Virus record (IMG/VR): IMGVR_UViG_2526164693_000018 | DNA length: 5,399 nucleotides | Direction: 5' to 3' (one strand) | Source of the DNA: a virus | Taxonomy: Duplodnaviria; Heunggongvirae; Uroviricota; Caudoviricetes | Part shown: positions 1 to 5,399 of the stretch, in pieces | How positions within the stretch are numbered: position 1 is the stretch's first letter | Layout: each line of letters opens with the position of its first letter | Translations under genes and position numbers: made by a program | The notes under the pieces: model-generated | What the model saw: only the letters and a program-made list of their open reading frames with translations | The model's database searches: none | Told to the model about the DNA's origin: nothing

Positions 1-349
1 TACACCATTCTGAGATGTTTTTATTTGGTCCAAACATGCCGCCTTGCTGCTTGATAATATTCATTCTGACGAGTTCTAACTTGGCTTCATTGCACCGTTT
101 GACAGGTAACTTTGTAATCTCGCTAAGTTGAGAATCGGTGATTCTGTCCATTGGTTTATTCCACCCATAGGTTTTACGCAGAATGGCAAGCAGCACTTTA
201 AACTGTCGCTTGGTCAGATCTGCGCCCGAATAAGCCTCAAGCAGCATATTTGATAGTCTGGCGTAACCATCATCGAGATCTGCCACATTACGCTCCTGTC
301 CGGCAAAGTTACCTCTGCCGAAGTTGAGTATTTTTGCTGTATTTGTCAT
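1..349 (-). CDS. O: Replication initiation protein O, N-terminal ~116 codons; gene runs off the left edge of the window
   Basis: Minus-strand translation from the ATG at 349 (complement of cat 347-349) gives MTNTAKILNFGRGNFAGQERNVADLDDGYARLSNMLLEAYSGADLTKRQFKVLLAILRKTYGWNKPMDRITDSQLSEITKLPVKRCNEAKLELVRMNIIKQQGGMFGPNKNISEW, which matches the lambda O N-terminus as I recall it. No stop inside the window, so it is absent from the ORF track. It lies directly downstream of cII as in lambda. Confidence 0.9.
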   Translation of the reverse strand, partial: MTNTAKILNFGRGNFAGQERNVADLDDGYARLSNMLLEAYSGADLTKRQFKVLLAILRKTYGWNKPMDRITDSQLSEITKLPVKRCNEAKLELVRMNIIKQQGGMFGPNKNISEWC

Positions 350-352
350 AAT
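324..352 (+). promoter_or_regulatory. Candidate pO promoter for oop RNA (-35 ttgagt 324-329, 17-nt spacer, -10 cataat 347-352)
   Basis: Sigma70-like hexamers with 17-bp spacing, placed to start transcription near 360 where the oop-like RNA begins. Location inside the O 5' end matches the known lambda arrangement. Confidence 0.5.
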
Positions 353-359
353 GACTCCT

Positions 360-436
360 GTTGATAGATCCAGTAATGACCTCAGAACTCCATCTGGATT
401 TGTTCAGAACGCTCGGTTGCCGCCGGGCGTTTTTTA
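360..436 (+). ncRNA. oop: oop antisense RNA (77 nt), complementary to the 3' end of cII
   Basis: Begins gttgatagatcc and ends in an intrinsic terminator: stem cgctcgg (410-416) / ccgggcg (423-429) with one G-U pair, loop ttgccg, then a T6 run at 430-435. The 77-nt length and the antisense overlap with the cII 3' end match lambda oop. Confidence 0.8.
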
Positions 437-675
437 TTGGTGAGAATCGCAGCAACTTGTCGCGCCAATCGAGCCATGTCGTCGTCAACGACCCCCCATT
501 CAAGAACAGCAAGCAGCATTGAGAACTTTGGAATCCAGTCTCTCTTCCACCTGCTGATCTGCGACTTATCAACTCCCACAGCTTCCGCTGTCTTCTCAGT
601 TCCAAGCATTGCGATTTTGTTAAGCAACGCACTCTCGATTCGTAGAGCCTCGTTGCGTTTGTTTGCACGAACCAT
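382..675 (-). CDS. cII: Transcriptional activator CII (97 aa)
   Basis: The internal Met of the 382..735 minus ORF gives MVRANKRNEALRIESALLNKIAMLGTEKTAEAVGVDKSQISRWKRDWIPKFSMLLAVLEWGVVDDDMARLARQVAAILTNKKRPAATERSEQIQMEF, which appears identical to lambda CII from memory. The start is the ATG at 675 (complement of cat 673-675). The upstream 20 codons of the track ORF are read-in from the intergenic region. Confidence 0.96.
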   Translation of the reverse strand: MVRANKRNEALRIESALLNKIAMLGTEKTAEAVGVDKSQISRWKRDWIPKFSMLLAVLEWGVVDDDMARLARQVAAILTNKKRPAATERSEQIQMEF

Positions 676-690
676 ATGTAAGTATTTCCT
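653..690 (+). promoter_or_regulatory. pRE region: CII-binding direct repeats TTGC-N6-TTGC (653-656 and 663-666) with downstream -10 region
   Basis: The sequence ttgcgtttgtttgc is the classic CII tetramer recognition motif flanking the -35 of pRE. It is oriented toward cro and cI on the plus strand and overlaps the cII start, as in lambda. Confidence 0.7.
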
Positions 691-754
691 TAGATAACAA
701 TTGATTGAATGTATGCAAATAAATGCATACACCATAGGTGTGGTTTAATTGGAT

Positions 755-786
755 GCCCTTTTTCAGGGCTGGAATGTGTAAGAGCG
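755..786 (-). promoter_or_regulatory. nutR: boxA (complement of gtaagagcg 778-786 = CGCTCTTAC) and boxB (complement of 755-769 = GCCCTGAAAAAGGGC)
   Basis: The reverse complement reads cgctcttacacattccagccctgaaaaagggc, the lambda nutR boxA-spacer-boxB arrangement. It sits between cro and cII; the rho-dependent tR1 region would lie in 676-754. Confidence 0.85.
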
Positions 787-793
787 GGGTTAT

Positions 794-1003
<210 letters not shown>

Positions 1004-1018
1004 TTAGTACATGCAACC

Positions 1019-1089
1019 ATTATCACCGCCAGAGGTAAAGTAGTCAACACGCGCGGTGTTAGATATTTATCCCTTGCGGTGATAGATTT
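1019..1089. promoter_or_regulatory. Right operator OR1 (1021-1037), OR2 (1045-1061), OR3 (1068-1084), with divergent PR (minus strand) and PRM (plus strand)
   Basis: Three 17-bp lambda-type operators: tatcaccgccagaggta, caacacgcgcggtgtta, tatcccttgcggtgata. PR on the minus strand has -35 TTGACT (complement of 1043-1048) and -10 GATAAT (complement of 1019-1024). PRM on the plus strand has -35 tagata (1060-1065) and -10 tagatt (1083-1088). The cI ATG at 1095 lies about 6 nt after the -10, consistent with leaderless cI mRNA. Confidence 0.9.
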
Positions 1090-1091
1090 AA

Positions 1092-1808
<717 letters not shown>

Positions 1809-2182
1809 AGAGGATAGATGGAGTTTAATGGCCATGAGTATCAAGCGGTCAAAAAGAAGTTCATCTATTCATTGAAAGCATAAGGCCATCTGAGTATATC
1901 CGTAATGATCTGGATATTGTCTATAACATCAATGACCGGACGATAGATATCGGTGAGCAGCGTCCTGTATGGCAGGGTGAGGCAGGTGAAAAAACGTCCT
2001 GCCATCAACAAGAATCAAGTGCATCCGCTCTCTGGACAGATGGAAAATTTATTGGATGCAAAAAGATATGAAATAACACCTGTATAGCACGGAGCTTTCT
2101 CTGACCGATGCACTTGAAGTTGTTAGGGCTGACCCAGCCTGCTGTTTCTTTAGGTAAGAGAAAAGAGATTTAGGAGATGAAA

Positions 2183-2209
2183 GGTCGCAGAGGTGCGGCC
2201 TTTTTTATT
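2183..2209 (+). terminator. Intrinsic terminator-like hairpin: stem ggtcgca / tgcggcc (one G-U pair), loop gagg, followed by T6
   Basis: 7-bp stem at 2183-2189 and 2194-2200, then tttttt at 2201-2206. Plus-strand orientation, about 375 nt downstream of the cI stop. Confidence 0.6.
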
Positions 2210-2248
2210 GAGAGTGGATCTTGAACGGAAATTCTCAAGACTTGAGTC

Positions 2249-2277
2249 TTGCATGCAAATCAATTCCTGGATAAACT
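2249..2277 (+). promoter_or_regulatory. Candidate sigma70 promoter for the 173-aa ORF (-35 ttgcat 2249-2254, 17-nt spacer, -10 taaact 2272-2277)
   Basis: Hexamers with canonical spacing about 33 nt upstream of the ORF start, overlapped and preceded by dyad-symmetric motifs (ctcaagacttgag 2234-2246, ttgcatgcaa 2249-2258). Confidence 0.35.
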
Positions 2278-2309
2278 CGATCTGAGTCAATAACTTAGAG
2301 AGAGAGCAA

Positions 2310-2831
2310 ATGGCAAAGTCAAACGTTAGCGTGCAGGCATTCAAGGACTTCCTTGAAGAGCTTATGTCGCTGAACATAATGAAGGAGGCCACCGCTCGAA
2401 ATTTAAAAAACTCATCCGCTCGCCTCTTAACGGTAGTCCAAGAAGAGGAAATGGGTGATGTTACTCAGCTTGATGTGAATGAGCTTGCCGAGCGATACAT
2501 CAACGCAACTGAGCCGAAGCCTAGCGACAGCAGCATTACTGCATATAAAAGCCGCATGGAAAGTGCAATCAAAAAGTTTGTAGCTTTCCAGTCTGGTGAA
2601 GAAATCCCATACACTCCGATTGACAAAGAATCCAGTGAGGAAAAAGATTTGACTGGCGAACCAACAAAAGTCGAAGGCAAGGCTAATGCACTTCATACCT
2701 ATGATCTTCCAGTAGTTCTTCGACCTGAATCAGGGGTTACAGTAACGATTAAAGGCATTCCTAACGATATCACAAACGAAGAAGCCGAACGCATCTCTTC
2801 AATTCTGAAGGTTTACGTTCGGCCTCAATAA
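2310..2831 (+). CDS. Hypothetical protein (173 aa), acidic, no recognised domain; occupies the position of rexA/rexB
   Basis: Longest ORF in the non-lambda segment. Purine-rich stretch gagagagag at 2297-2305 precedes the ATG at 2310. Hydrophilic, net acidic by my count (about 29 D/E against 21 K/R), no obvious transmembrane segment. A promoter-like element lies upstream and a terminator downstream. Confidence 0.6.
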   Translation: MAKSNVSVQAFKDFLEELMSLNIMKEATARNLKNSSARLLTVVQEEEMGDVTQLDVNELAERYINATEPKPSDSSITAYKSRMESAIKKFVAFQSGEEIPYTPIDKESSEEKDLTGEPTKVEGKANALHTYDLPVVLRPESGVTVTIKGIPNDITNEEAERISSILKVYVRPQ

Positions 2832-3004
2832 TGCAAAAGCATTCAGCACAATGTCCAACTCCCCAGTCCGACATTGATGCTGTTTAACCAGAGCCTCCAA
2901 AAGGAGCCCTTGTTAAGGTACACAATATTTGCGATGTAACCTTAGCGCGTCTGGTACATTTTTTCAAGCGGTTGTAGGGCTGCCGCCAATATGAGAAAAC
3001 ACAG

Positions 3005-3127
3005 ATGTCTACATACAATTTGAATGACCAATTCGATCGAGAAGTTCATGTGAATGCCTATGAACGGATAAGGCATGGAAATCTTGAACATGTGTGTGAG
3101 CATTATCGCTCAAGGCCACACCGCTAA
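3005..3127 (+). CDS. Candidate small ORF (40 aa, MSTYNLNDQFDREVHVNAYERIRHGNLEHVCEHYRSRPHR), speculative
   Basis: ATG at 3005, stop taa at 3125-3127, ending 6 nt before a strong intrinsic terminator. Only a weak Shine-Dalgarno (gaga at 2993-2996). Below the length cutoff of the ORF track. The region could instead be a 3'UTR or sRNA. Confidence 0.25.
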   Translation: MSTYNLNDQFDREVHVNAYERIRHGNLEHVCEHYRSRPHR

Positions 3128-3132
3128 TCATC

Positions 3133-3161
3133 AACCCGGCCTCCATGCCGGGTTTTCTTTT
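3133..3161 (+). terminator. Strong intrinsic terminator: stem aacccggc / gccgggtt, loop ctccat, followed by ttctttt
   Basis: 8-bp GC-rich perfect stem (3133-3140 and 3147-3154) with a T-rich tail on the plus strand. The reverse-strand tail is less U-rich, so it is mainly unidirectional. Confidence 0.75.
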
Positions 3162-3341
3162 CCTCTCGCCCAAAAAAACACATAACCAATTGTATTTATT
3201 GGAAAATAAATAGATACAACTCACTAAACAACGCAATTCTGATCTCTCCTTACATCGCCGAGGCAATACACCCACGCTAAAAAACAATACTATTAAATAC
3301 AAAGCGTTGTAAAAAAACGCCCCGTTTTAGAACAAATTGTA

Positions 3342-3370
3342 TTGACCAAGTGAAGTACATATCGTACTAT
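3342..3370 (+). promoter_or_regulatory. Candidate pL-equivalent promoter (-35 ttgacc 3342-3347, 17-nt spacer, -10 tactat 3365-3370)
   Basis: Good -35 and moderate -10 with 17-bp spacing, about 45 nt upstream of a boxA-like element and 190 nt upstream of the N-like gene. A 5-bp-arm dyad agtac-N5-gtact (3354-3368) overlaps the spacer and -10. No lambda-type 17-bp OL operators are visible. Confidence 0.4.
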
Positions 3371-3415
3371 TTAACCATCAGCAGGACGCTGGAAGCCAAA
3401 TGGAACAGACTGGCA

Positions 3416-3461
3416 GGCTCTTTAAACAACGTCGACTCTCGACTACGTGGCTGAAAAGCCA
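3416..3461 (+). promoter_or_regulatory. Candidate nutL: boxA-like ggctctttaaacaa (3416-3429) and boxB-like hairpin tggct-gaaa-agcca (3448-3461)
   Basis: gctctttaa matches the boxA consensus (CGCTCTTTA; closer to the rrn-type TGCTCTTTAACAA). Downstream there is a 5-bp stem with a GAAA loop resembling a boxB hairpin. A second short hairpin gtcga-ctc-tcgac (3431-3443) lies between them. Located in the leader of the N-like gene. Confidence 0.5.
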
Positions 3462-3559
3462 GATCACCCAACCACATAAGCTGTGGGATGCAATGCCGAA
3501 GCAACCGTCTCAGGAGGAGCTTCGAGATTGCATCGCCAAAGTTTATTCGGGAGGAATCT

Positions 3560-3832
3560 ATGTCCAGAAAAACAGAATTTAAAGGCACCGCAGCTTCTCG
3601 CCGTAGAGCTCGTCGCGCAAACCTGCAAAGTCAGGAGGCGATTAGCTCCGACAAACTACACAGGCCAACCCCATCACGAGTGGTCTTACAATGCAAACGC
3701 AAACCAGCAATGAGAGCAGAAGTAATAACACTGACAACGTTGACCAGAAAATATGAAGGCTCAACTTGTCTTCCAAATGTAGCTCTTTACGCGGCAGGCT
3801 ACCGTAAATCCAAACAACTGACAGCAAGATGA
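3560..3832 (+). CDS. N: N-family transcription antiterminator (90 aa), P22 gp24 / phi21 N-like rather than lambda N
   Basis: Start chosen at the internal ATG 3560, preceded by gggagg at 3549-3554 (5-nt spacer). N-terminal arginine-rich motif GTAASRRRARRANLQ, typical of N-protein ARMs. The C-terminus LPNVALYAAGYRKSKQLTAR resembles the P22 gene 24 product as I recall it. Lies downstream of the candidate pL and nutL. Confidence 0.75.
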   Translation: MSRKTEFKGTAASRRRARRANLQSQEAISSDKLHRPTPSRVVLQCKRKPAMRAEVITLTTLTRKYEGSTCLPNVALYAAGYRKSKQLTAR

Positions 3833-3890
3833 CTTGTGTTGGTCGCCAGAAAATGAAATTAGGCAGCAAACCACTTATTTGAGGTGATAT

Positions 3891-4142
3891 ATGGAATTTC
3901 ATGAAAGTGCGATTTGTGATTTTCGCGCTAACGCAAATTCAGTAAAACCACAGCCAATTGCAGTTCTTTTTAAAACAATGGGTGCGTGGGCTGTTTTATG
4001 CTTCGCCGCTGACGACACTGACGCAAGAATGGCAATAGGACAAGAGATGGAGATGGACCCGACAAACGATGAATTCATAATTTATGGCGCTCCATCTAAT
4101 TACTTACTTGATACCTGCAACATTTACAACAAGGCTGCCTGA
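3891..4142 (+). CDS. Hypothetical protein (83 aa) in the position occupied by ral in lambda
   Basis: ORF with Shine-Dalgarno gaggtg at 3879-3884, 6 nt before the ATG at 3891. No similarity to lambda Ral that I can recognise except the C-terminal NKAA. Confidence 0.6.
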   Translation: MEFHESAICDFRANANSVKPQPIAVLFKTMGAWAVLCFAADDTDARMAIGQEMEMDPTNDEFIIYGAPSNYLLDTCNIYNKAA

Positions 4143-4278
4143 TGGTGGCCTTTATTTTTGGCATAAACAACAGAATAAACACAGCACTGTGTATTCATTC
4201 CAACGAGTGAATACACGGAGCAATGTCGCTCGTAACTAAACAGGAGCCGACTTGTTCTGATTATTGGAAATCTTCTTT

Positions 4279-4304
4279 GCCCTCCAATGTGAGGGCGATT
4301 TTTT
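4279..4304 (+). terminator. Intrinsic terminator-like hairpin: stem gccctc / gagggc, loop caatgt, followed by ga + T6
   Basis: 6-bp GC-rich stem (4279-4284 and 4291-4296) with tttttt at 4299-4304, located about 20 nt upstream of the 122-aa ORF ribosome-binding site. Analogous in position to tL1 downstream of N. Confidence 0.6.
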
Positions 4305-4324
4305 ATCTGTGAGGATATGAACAG

Positions 4325-4693
4325 ATGTCAAACATCAAAAAATACATCATTGATTACGACTGGAAAGCATCAATAGAAATTGAAATCGACCATGACGTAA
4401 TGACAGAGGAAAAACTTCACCAGATTAATAATTTCTGGTCAGACTCTGAATACCGACTCAATAAACACGGCTCTGTATTAAATGCTGTATTAATCATGCT
4501 GGCGCAACATGCTCTGCTTATAGCAATTTCAAGCGACTTAAATGCATATGGTGTTGTGTGTGAGTTCGACTGGAATGATGGAAATGGTCAGGAAGGATGG
4601 CCTCCAATGGATGGTAGCGAAGGAATAAGAATTACCGATATCGATACATCAGGAATATTTGATTCAGATGATATGACTATCAAAGCCGCCTGA
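4325..4693 (+). CDS. Hypothetical protein (122 aa) with acidic C-terminal region
   Basis: ORF with Shine-Dalgarno gagga at 4311-4315, 9 nt before the ATG at 4325. Asp/Glu-rich C-terminal half (DWNDGNGQEGWPPMDGSEGIRITDIDTSGIFDSDDMT). Not a lambda gene I recognise. Confidence 0.6.
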   Translation: MSNIKKYIIDYDWKASIEIEIDHDVMTEEKLHQINNFWSDSEYRLNKHGSVLNAVLIMLAQHALLIAISSDLNAYGVVCEFDWNDGNGQEGWPPMDGSEGIRITDIDTSGIFDSDDMTIKAA

Positions 4694-4765
4694 GCGCGGC
4701 GTTACCGCATACCAATAACGCTTCACTCGAGGCGTTTTTCGTTATGTATAAATAAGGAGCACACC

Positions 4766-4930
4766 ATGCAATATGCCATTGCAGGGTGGCCTGTTGCTGG
4801 CTGCCCTTCCGAATCTTTACTTGAACGAATCACCCGTAAATTACGTGACGGATGGAAACGCCTTATCGACATACTTAATCAGCCAGGAGTCCCAAAAAAT
4901 GGATCAAACACTTATGGCTATCCAGACTAA
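4766..4930 (+). CDS. cIII: CIII protein (54 aa), FtsH protease inhibitor that stabilises CII
   Basis: Translation [54 protein letters not shown] matches lambda CIII. Shine-Dalgarno aggag at 4755-4759. It is in a different frame from the 4773..5042 track ORF. Confidence 0.92.
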   Translation: MQYAIAGWPVAGCPSESLLERITRKLRDGWKRLIDILNQPGVPKNGSNTYGYPD

Positions 4931-5042
4931 ATTCACTATCGCCACTTTTATTGGCGATGAAAAGATGTTTCGTGAGGCCGTCGACGCTTATAAAAAATGG
5001 ATATTAATACTGAAACTGAGATCAAGCAAAAGCATTCACTAA
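4899..5042 (+). CDS. kil: Kil protein (47 aa), host cell-division inhibitor
   Basis: The internal Met of the 4773..5042 track ORF gives [47 protein letters not shown], matching lambda Kil. Shine-Dalgarno aggag at 4886-4890. Overlaps the cIII 3' end by 32 nt in another frame, as in lambda. Confidence 0.85.
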
Positions 5043-5116
5043 CCCCCTTTCCTGTTTTCCTAATCAGCCTGGCATTTCGCGGGCGATATTTTCACAGCTA
5101 TTTCAGGAGTTCAGCC

Positions 5117-5399
5117 ATGAACGCTTATTACATTCAGGATTGTCTTGAGGCTCAGAGCTGGGCGCGTTACTACCAGCAGATCGCCCGTGAAGAGAAAGAG
5201 GCAGAACTGGCAGACGACATGGGAAAAGGTCTGCCCCAGCACCTGTTTGAATCACTCTGCATCGATCATTTGCAACGCCACGGGGCCAGCAAAAAAGCCA
5301 TTACCCGTGCGTTTGATGACGATGTTGAGTTTCAGGAGCGCATGGCAGAACACATCCGGTACATGGTTGAAACCATTGCTCACCACCAGGTTGATATTG
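5117..5399 (+). CDS. ea10: Ea10-like early protein, N-terminal 94 codons; runs off the right edge of the window
   Basis: Translation [94 protein letters not shown] closely resembles lambda Ea10 from memory. Shine-Dalgarno aggag at 5105-5109. No stop in the window. Confidence 0.75.

Follow-up and report, generated by a model that had tools for sequence, protein, structure and literature searches.

The immunity region of lambdoid phages, composed of OL, cI, OR and cro, is inherited together as a unit in the textbook description. The present analysis concerns a 5,399-nt stretch of viral DNA (IMG/VR record IMGVR_UViG_2526164693_000018; hereafter the window), in which this unit is divided. The early-left region of the window is the one found in VT2-Sakai (Sp5), the Stx1-converting phage, Stx2 II, 1717 and 2851, and positions 1780–4474, which comprise H0093, H0092, the terminator, OL3–OL1, pL, nutL, N and H0090, are base-for-base identical to VT2-Sakai (AP000422). 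In megablast comparisons window 1398–5399 is 99.4% identical to VT2-Sakai, the Morioka V526 Stx1 and Stx2-II phages, 2851 and the PA series, and equally to O157 chromosomes numbering in the hundreds. In VT2-Sakai and its relatives, however, these operators are paired with CI, Cro and OR of the Sakai type, whereas the window carries the cI N-terminal domain, OR, cro, cII and nutR of lambda. Positions 1–1500 are 99.2–99.5% identical to lambda and ev099. Other wild prophages of lambda immunity are SfI, mEp332, HK544 and the O157:H7 proA remnant; in this group the 46 other lambda-cI loci compared have lambda OL1–3 upstream of N, but the window does not. What is new is an immunity region split within cI, with OL and OR of different specificity; every part of it is known already, and each is essentially identical to a phage described before.

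Layout of the Window

The lambdoid early region is placed in the window in the orientation opposite to the standard lambda map, and its features are collected in Table 1. Window 3–1500 corresponds to lambda 37535–39032, and with ori iteron 1 located at lambda 39034 the first base of the window is the start of this iteron; such an exact start suggests that the window is a complete short-read contig. Past N there follow an 83-aa ORF, ea10/DUF2528, cIII with its RNA thermometer, kil and most of gam, and the ORFs from cI to kil are all intact. The Rfam search of the whole window gave a sole match, the lambda cIII thermoregulator (RF01804, 88.5 bits) at 4753–4811, at the start of cIII, and none near pL.

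Table 1. Positions of the main features in the window, with the evidence for each
Feature	Position	Strand	Evidence and remarks
Gene O, lambda type, 5′ part	1–349	−	corresponds to the Phage_rep_O gene of L003
cII, lambda type	382–675	−	Pfam Phage_CII, 1.1e-48
nutR, lambda type	754–786	−	boxA CGCTCTTAC (778–786), boxB AGCCCTGAAAAAGGGCA (754–770); comparison with lambda nutR and fold
cro, lambda type	794–994	−	Pfam Cro, 5.9e-35; region 99% identical to lambda
Lambda OR1, OR2, OR3	1021–1037, 1045–1061, 1068–1084		between cro and cI; weight matrix
cI	1095–1808	+	Pfam HTH_3 and Peptidase_S24; lambda DNA-binding domain, C-terminal domain in common with Sakai-type CI
173-aa ORF, H0093 of VT2-Sakai	2310–2831	+	annotated in AP000422; phrog_2602, unknown function; rexAB slot of lambda
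40-aa ORF, H0092 of VT2-Sakai	3005–3127	+	AP000422; phrog_21154, unknown function
Intrinsic-terminator-like hairpin (3133–3154) and T tract	3133–3164	+	ends the PRM (cI) operon; in AP000422, terminator for the pRM transcript
Conserved linker of lambda-type and Sakai-type loci	3129–3248		L013 returns to lambda OL here
Putative Sakai-type OL3	3295–3311		AAATACAAAGCGTTGTA; AP000422 operator, offset 1103; matrix 9.95, single good half-site
Putative Sakai-type OL2	3328–3344		TAGAACAAATTGTATTG; overlaps the −35 hexamer; contains AATTGTATT; matrix 13.0
Putative Sakai-type OL1	3353–3369		AAGTACATATCGTACTA; overlaps the −10 hexamer; contains the AGTAC-N5-GTACT dyad; matrix 16.0
nutL, Sakai/933W type	3416–3461	+	boxA 3416–3425, spacer hairpin 3431–3443, boxB TGGCTGAAAAGCCA 3448–3461
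N antiterminator, 933W/Sakai type, 90 aa	3560–3832	+	Pfam N_peptide PF25694, 3.4e-32

A Lambda Repressor without Lambda Operators at pL

The first-pass annotation of this DNA, made by reading the letters, had taken the OR1–3 region at 1021–1084 for canonical lambda operators and the repressor for one of lambda-like specificity, and both assignments are borne out. With a half-site weight matrix, for which six lambda operators served as the training set, OR1 (19.9), OR2 (14.7) and OR3 (18.1) are the three best-scoring sites of the window, all others reaching 12.2 at most. The CI protein contains the QSGVGALFN motif and is identical to lambda CI at 233 of 237 residues, including the entire recognition helix. 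The window thus holds the lambda-domain CI, the three OR operators and lambda Cro, and what it lacks from lambda immunity is a lambda-type OL overlapping pL upstream of N. In finer detail, the central base of OR2 (1053) is G in the window and in the remnants on the proA side and A in lambda, and the OR1–OR2 spacer differs from lambda at 1040. Exactly this CI protein occurs widely, with 10,875 index blocks listing it, and in all ten places listed it is followed by a cassette with an NYN-domain gene, or a remnant of it, and then by lambda OL.

That lambda half-sites are missing between 3000 and 3560 had been noticed at first reading, and the weight matrix leads to the same result: the best score in this interval is 2.97, whereas Markov shuffles of the same 561 nt reach a maximum of 5.06 on average (sd 2.3). 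The scan found no lambda-type operators anywhere downstream of cI in the window. Two lambda-operator-like 17-mers inside genes, one within O (310–326, TACCTCTGCCGAAGTTG, score 12.2) and one within N (3726–3742, TAACACTGACAACGTTG, score 11.0), were considered as operators and are taken as chance matches, with ~0.08 and ~0.17 such sites expected per window, respectively. A scan for operators with one lambda and one Sakai half, as would suit a mixed repressor dimer, returned none above chance except OR2 itself. Among the 173-aa, 40-aa and 83-aa ORFs no alternative repressor emerged, as Pfam, PHROGs and PADLOC gave neither a DNA-binding domain nor a known function for them.

These comparisons demonstrate, at the level of predicted specificity, that the CI and Cro encoded here are lambda-specific and have no cognate sites at pL. 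The resident CI should thus be unable to control pL, which in cis would lie outside the control of the adjacent repressor, because this CI is lambda-specific, whereas pL bears only operators of the Sakai type.

pL and Left Operators of the VT2-Sakai Type

The candidate pL proposed upstream of the N-like gene is well supported. A sigma-70-like promoter on the + strand at 3342–3370 is made of TTGACC (3342–3347), a 17-nt spacer and TACTAT (3365–3370), and AP000422 annotates the major leftward promoter at the matching position. The stretch 3295–3369 is identical to the putative operators of AP000422, and the six annotated Sakai sites (three OR, three OL) have in common the core A(A/G)TAC-N5-GTA(C/T)T. 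To test the operators independently, a matrix was built from Sakai OR1–3 alone and the window was scanned with it; the best match is OL1 (3353–3369, 16.0; 0.003 expected per 5.4 kb) and the second is OL2 (3328–3344, 13.0; 0.077 expected per window). Overlap of the operators with the −10 and −35 hexamers is found in other lambdoid phages as well.

Two motifs pointed out earlier are explained by these operators. The AGTAC-N5-GTACT dyad, whose single occurrence in the window is at 3354–3368, does overlap pL as described, but it is not the unrelated element that it was thought to be, being the core of OL1, the Sakai-type operator proximal to the promoter. The repeat AATTGTATT has indeed two copies; the one at 3335–3343 was correctly placed and forms the right half of OL2, whereas the first lies at 3188–3196, one base away from the 3187–3195 given for it. 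This first copy is contained in an isolated good half-site of the Sakai type (3181–3197, CATAACCAATTGTATTT), located 100 bp upstream of OL3 in the linker that is conserved across immunity types.

The region 3160–3400 thus holds the pL and OL control elements of an immunity module of the VT2-Sakai type and is not a degenerate lambda one. One of the two options offered by the first-pass annotation, namely that pL is controlled by another factor, has in this way gained a definite candidate, since the three annotated putative operators of the VT2-Sakai-type CI are situated exactly on the candidate pL. Of VT2-Sakai immunity the window has the OL core overlapping pL, and it has neither the Sakai CI N-terminal domain nor the Sakai OR and Cro.

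From pL transcription would read through the Sakai-type nutL into an N of the 933W/Sakai type, which is just 35% identical to lambda N over 63 aa. The nutL agrees with the AP000422 annotation (which maps to 3416–3456) and folds as expected, its boxA and spacer hairpin being followed by a boxB with a GAAA loop. The 933W/Sakai N/nut module is represented by the PF25694 N and by nutL downstream of pL, and downstream of pR its cognate nutR is absent. Here a second mismatch of specificity can be noted: the Sakai/933W N and nutL (GAAA tetraloop, spacer hairpin) stand together with a lambda-type nutR at 754–786, which has a GAAAA pentaloop and no spacer hairpin.

Two Parents and a Switch Inside cI

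The other option, a recent mosaic, fits the sequence equally well. Window 1–1720 has 0 mismatches to three lambda-immunity remnants beside proB-proA (L004, L005, L009), and the O157:H7 versions on the proA side (L010, L012) differ from it by one SNP over the same interval; after the switch the window differs from the proA-side remnants at 1721, 1727, 1778, 1781 and 1784. From 1780 to 4474 there are 0 mismatches to VT2-Sakai, and the difference at 1779 is private to AP000422. When the window is compared with Sakai-type phages, 20 positions differ between 1430 and 1709 and none between 1780 and 4474. The window equals the lambda-immunity parent through 1709 and the Sakai-type phages from 1721, which leaves 1710–1720 as the switch interval. 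Judged from its sequence, the window is a two-parent mosaic of contemporary E. coli prophage types, with O′-cII-cro-OR-cI from one of them and all from 1721 from the other.

The join falls in the last 100 bp of cI, in the coding sequence of the C-terminal domain. Lambda-type and Sakai-type cI have highly divergent N-terminal domains, whereas their C-terminal domains show ~94% nucleotide identity and are near-identical as proteins; that lambda CI and the CI of Stx phages have this domain in common was noted earlier (PMC3430580). In about 90 loci the SNPs of the cI C-terminal part (1398–1808) form a patchwork of blocks common to lambda-type and Sakai-type repressors, which indicates that recombination within this domain is frequent. 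The start of the Sakai-type cI is annotated in two ways, as a 217-aa protein in AP000422 (L001 2258–2911) and as a 231-aa protein by gene callers in most genomes (e.g., L092 2804–3499); inconsistent N-termini of this repressor were also remarked upon before (PMC3430580).

Cassettes between cI and OL

Between cI and the operators, at 1808–3248, there is a slot for interchangeable cassettes (rexAB, an NYN-domain gene, or the 173-aa and 40-aa ORFs), which are found with either immunity type; the comparison took in L003, L007, L013 and L039, the last of which combines Sakai cI, the NYN cassette and Sakai OL. A conserved linker bounds the slot on each side, formed by the cI C-terminal domain at one end and by 3129–3248 at the other. 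The latter is 84–87% identical to the lambda-immunity loci, and ~92% over 3181–3248. For the 173-aa protein no function was obtained from Pfam, PHROGs (phrog_2602, unknown function) or PADLOC. Because they would be co-transcribed with cI up to the terminator at 3133–3154, like rexAB, the cassettes of this slot may be exclusion genes expressed in the lysogen.

Rarity of the Combination

For comparison, loci were gathered by exact-pattern scans of IMG/VR and by protein look-ups, and were classed by the cI N-terminal domain and the downstream operators. The operator type matches the repressor type in 79 of 81 loci, and the two exceptions are the window and the contig L014. Among lambda-type cI loci with enough DNA, 46 of 48 have clustered lambda OL, the window and L014 having Sakai operators; all 33 Sakai-type cI loci carry the Sakai OL1 sequence and none of them lambda OL, so that among these 33 no locus joins a Sakai N-terminal domain to lambda OL, as the reciprocal junction would.

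None of 5,426 complete E. coli genomes contains the junction itself; their best match over 1560–1900 reaches 97.4% and belongs to the Sakai parent, and the Sakai-type parent is present in 243 of these genomes. The junction is also absent from 50,697 phage records, and scans for the junction pattern in GTDB species representatives and JGI metagenomes gave no matches. Look-ups of the exact cI and H0093 proteins, searched for the hybrid, led to matched parents in all 20 places listed. The combination of a split cI with OL and OR of different types was thus not found in any curated genome or phage record, and the junction is known from two short draft contigs only.

L014, the sole other instance, is a 6.8-kb IMG/VR contig of the same arrangement, 99.78% identical to the window. 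Its switch interval is 1662–1708, since it has 1709A, and it is made up of a 47-nt exact repeat common to both parents. Among the comparators 5141T occurs in the window and L014 only. The L014 bases 3324A and 3352T were considered as compensatory mutations of pL and rejected, as they are natural polymorphisms also present in matched Sakai-type loci (L030, L095). By its kind the event is ordinary mosaicism of the lambdoid early region; the combination is unusually rare.

Origin of the Junction

The usual exchange of a cassette would require two crossovers, one in the cI C-terminal domain and one in the linker 3129–3248, and the operators would therefore stay paired with the repressor. A matched double-crossover counterpart of the window is L013 (UViG_2778261064_000020), in which lambda cI is followed by the H0093/H0092 cassette, identical to window 1710–3239; this locus leaves the window at 3248 for canonical lambda OL3-OL2-OL1, lambda nutL and lambda N. 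L039, with its Sakai cI, NYN cassette and Sakai OL, is a second such counterpart. In the window only the crossover in the first linker would have taken place, with no return crossover in the second.

We give a little better than an even chance to a real junction, formed by homologous recombination of a Sakai-type phage with a lambda-immunity prophage already resident, with pL repressed in trans by a Sakai-type CI. The route could have been an inversion, or an incoming Sakai-type phage could have inserted by homology into the resident cI. In the same cell there would then be left the reciprocal junction, still making the Sakai-type CI, and this protein would repress the pL of the window in trans. 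Both parents are present, in inverted orientation, in the O157:H7 strain TR01 (CP033605), where the lambda-immunity one (L010) lies at 0.30 Mb and the Sakai-type one (L098) at 2.70 Mb, and recombination between prophages, as well as inversions bounded by prophages, are documented in O157 (PMC2669165, PMC8743559). The TR01 chromosome encodes lambda-type and Sakai-type CI with near-identical C-terminal domains, and it is conceivable that mixed dimers or oligomers of both repressors are formed in ordinary O157:H7 strains.

Two other explanations keep the lambda repressor in charge of pL. The first-pass annotation had allowed for a true pL with lambda operators mapping elsewhere, and this was looked for; it is almost certainly wrong, as the whole stretch separating the stop of cI (1808) from the start of N (3560) lies in the window and contains no lambda-type site, and the sole strong promoter match facing N is that at 3342–3370. 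It is very improbable, too, that lambda CI controls this pL by cross-binding to the Sakai-type operators. In EMSA lambda CI bound OL1, OL2 and OL3 of VT2-Sakai with apparent KD of 5.4, 4.0 and 3.7 μM, but in the same EMSA lambda OL1 was bound at 0.21 μM, ~25-fold tighter than Sakai OL1 (PMC10742460). The main text of that report appears to describe no control with non-specific DNA, the terms non-specific, negative control, random and scrambled being absent from it outside the references, and the binding of lambda CI to Sakai OL1–3 in this assay is not regarded as functional repression. Furthermore, the lambda matrix finds no match near the Sakai-type operators, the N-terminal domains of the two CI proteins are highly divergent, and the co-occurrence of repressor and operator types in 79 of 81 loci argues for distinct specificities.

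A different matter is whether the junction exists in a genome at all. In an assembly chimera, a short-read assembler would have used the ~410-bp, 94%-identical repeat of the cI C-terminal domain to join a lambda-immunity remnant and a Sakai-type phage that are separate, matched prophages of the source strain; the anatomy would remain as described, but the mismatch would have no biological existence. We consider this unlikely, though far from negligible. The two contigs with the junction are short (5.4 and 6.8 kb), the first base of the window coincides with lambda ori iteron 1, like a contig end, and the IMG/VR contigs L033, L035 and L037 break within the same repeat; yet L037 also illustrates that assemblies of the same IMG series break at the repeat and do not bridge it. 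The 47-nt exact repeat in L014 would favour a misjoin, but in the window the interval offers only 11 nt of exact identity, which would not suffice for a k-mer misjoin if the right parent lacked 1709G. The join occurs in none of the complete genomes despite the many that carry the Sakai-type parent, and the window and L014 differ in the switch interval and partly in the right-hand alleles, like independent artefacts. Against this, the switch is clean, 20 consecutive left-parent SNPs being followed by right-parent SNPs with no mixed consensus, and the otherwise unseen 5141T in both contigs suggests a common real ancestor sequence. On the sequence alone, a real junction may be held roughly twice as likely as a chimera. 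A real junction could also stand by itself, in a single-copy recombinant (a hybrid phage or a remodelled cryptic prophage) with no cognate repressor of pL, where pL-N-kil-gam would be constitutive, otherwise silenced, or tolerated. This is distinctly improbable. It would agree with the fact that from the genome of L014 (2531839234) IMG/VR contains no Sakai-type cI N-terminal domain or OR, but IMG/VR holds viral contigs only and not whole genomes, and absence there is weak evidence; the downstream sequence of the lambda parent is not listed from that genome either. L014 is, moreover, unbroken through all k-mer runs shared in the C-terminal domain, which would be easier with one copy in the genome. 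What speaks against such a hybrid is that N, nutL and kil have remained intact and do not differ from those of VT2-Sakai. In lambda genetics it is lethal or strongly deleterious to leave pL unrepressed with N and kil present, and a stable lineage is therefore unlikely. For the same reason repression in trans is favoured if the junction is real, because a lineage with an unrepressed pL and with N, nutL and kil intact would be expected to suffer.

Split Immunity and Known Hybrids

A stronger form of the trans-repression proposal would be that of a real, stably carried element with divided immunity, whose rightward arm is under its own CI and Cro, and whose leftward arm (N, kil, gam, red, int) is only under the Sakai-type repressor of another prophage; we regard this as improbable. 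If it were true, the early-left genes would depend on whether a co-resident Stx phage is induced, and lambda CI at OR together with Sakai CI at OL, their C-terminal domains being near-identical, might even assemble into mixed long-range loops or heterodimers. A real join would provide a natural case of a prophage arm placed under the repressor of another prophage in Shiga-toxin-type E. coli, which would bear on the cross-talk of prophages and on the locking-in of Stx phages. Should the join prove an assembly artefact, it would show that a repeat of ~410 bp can yield false regulatory mismatches in draft genomes.

The agreement of operator and repressor type in nearly all loci supports the immunity region as a unit, despite the free swapping of the cassette between cI and OL. 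The unit is nevertheless breakable, for one crossover in the conserved sequence of the cI C-terminal domain suffices. Regulatory modules were swapped by recombination in flanking homology also in the laboratory hybrids lambda imm434 and lambda imm21, and in these the whole immunity region, from OL through cI and OR to cro, stays together as a unit; in the window, by contrast, the unit is split and the crossover lies inside cI.
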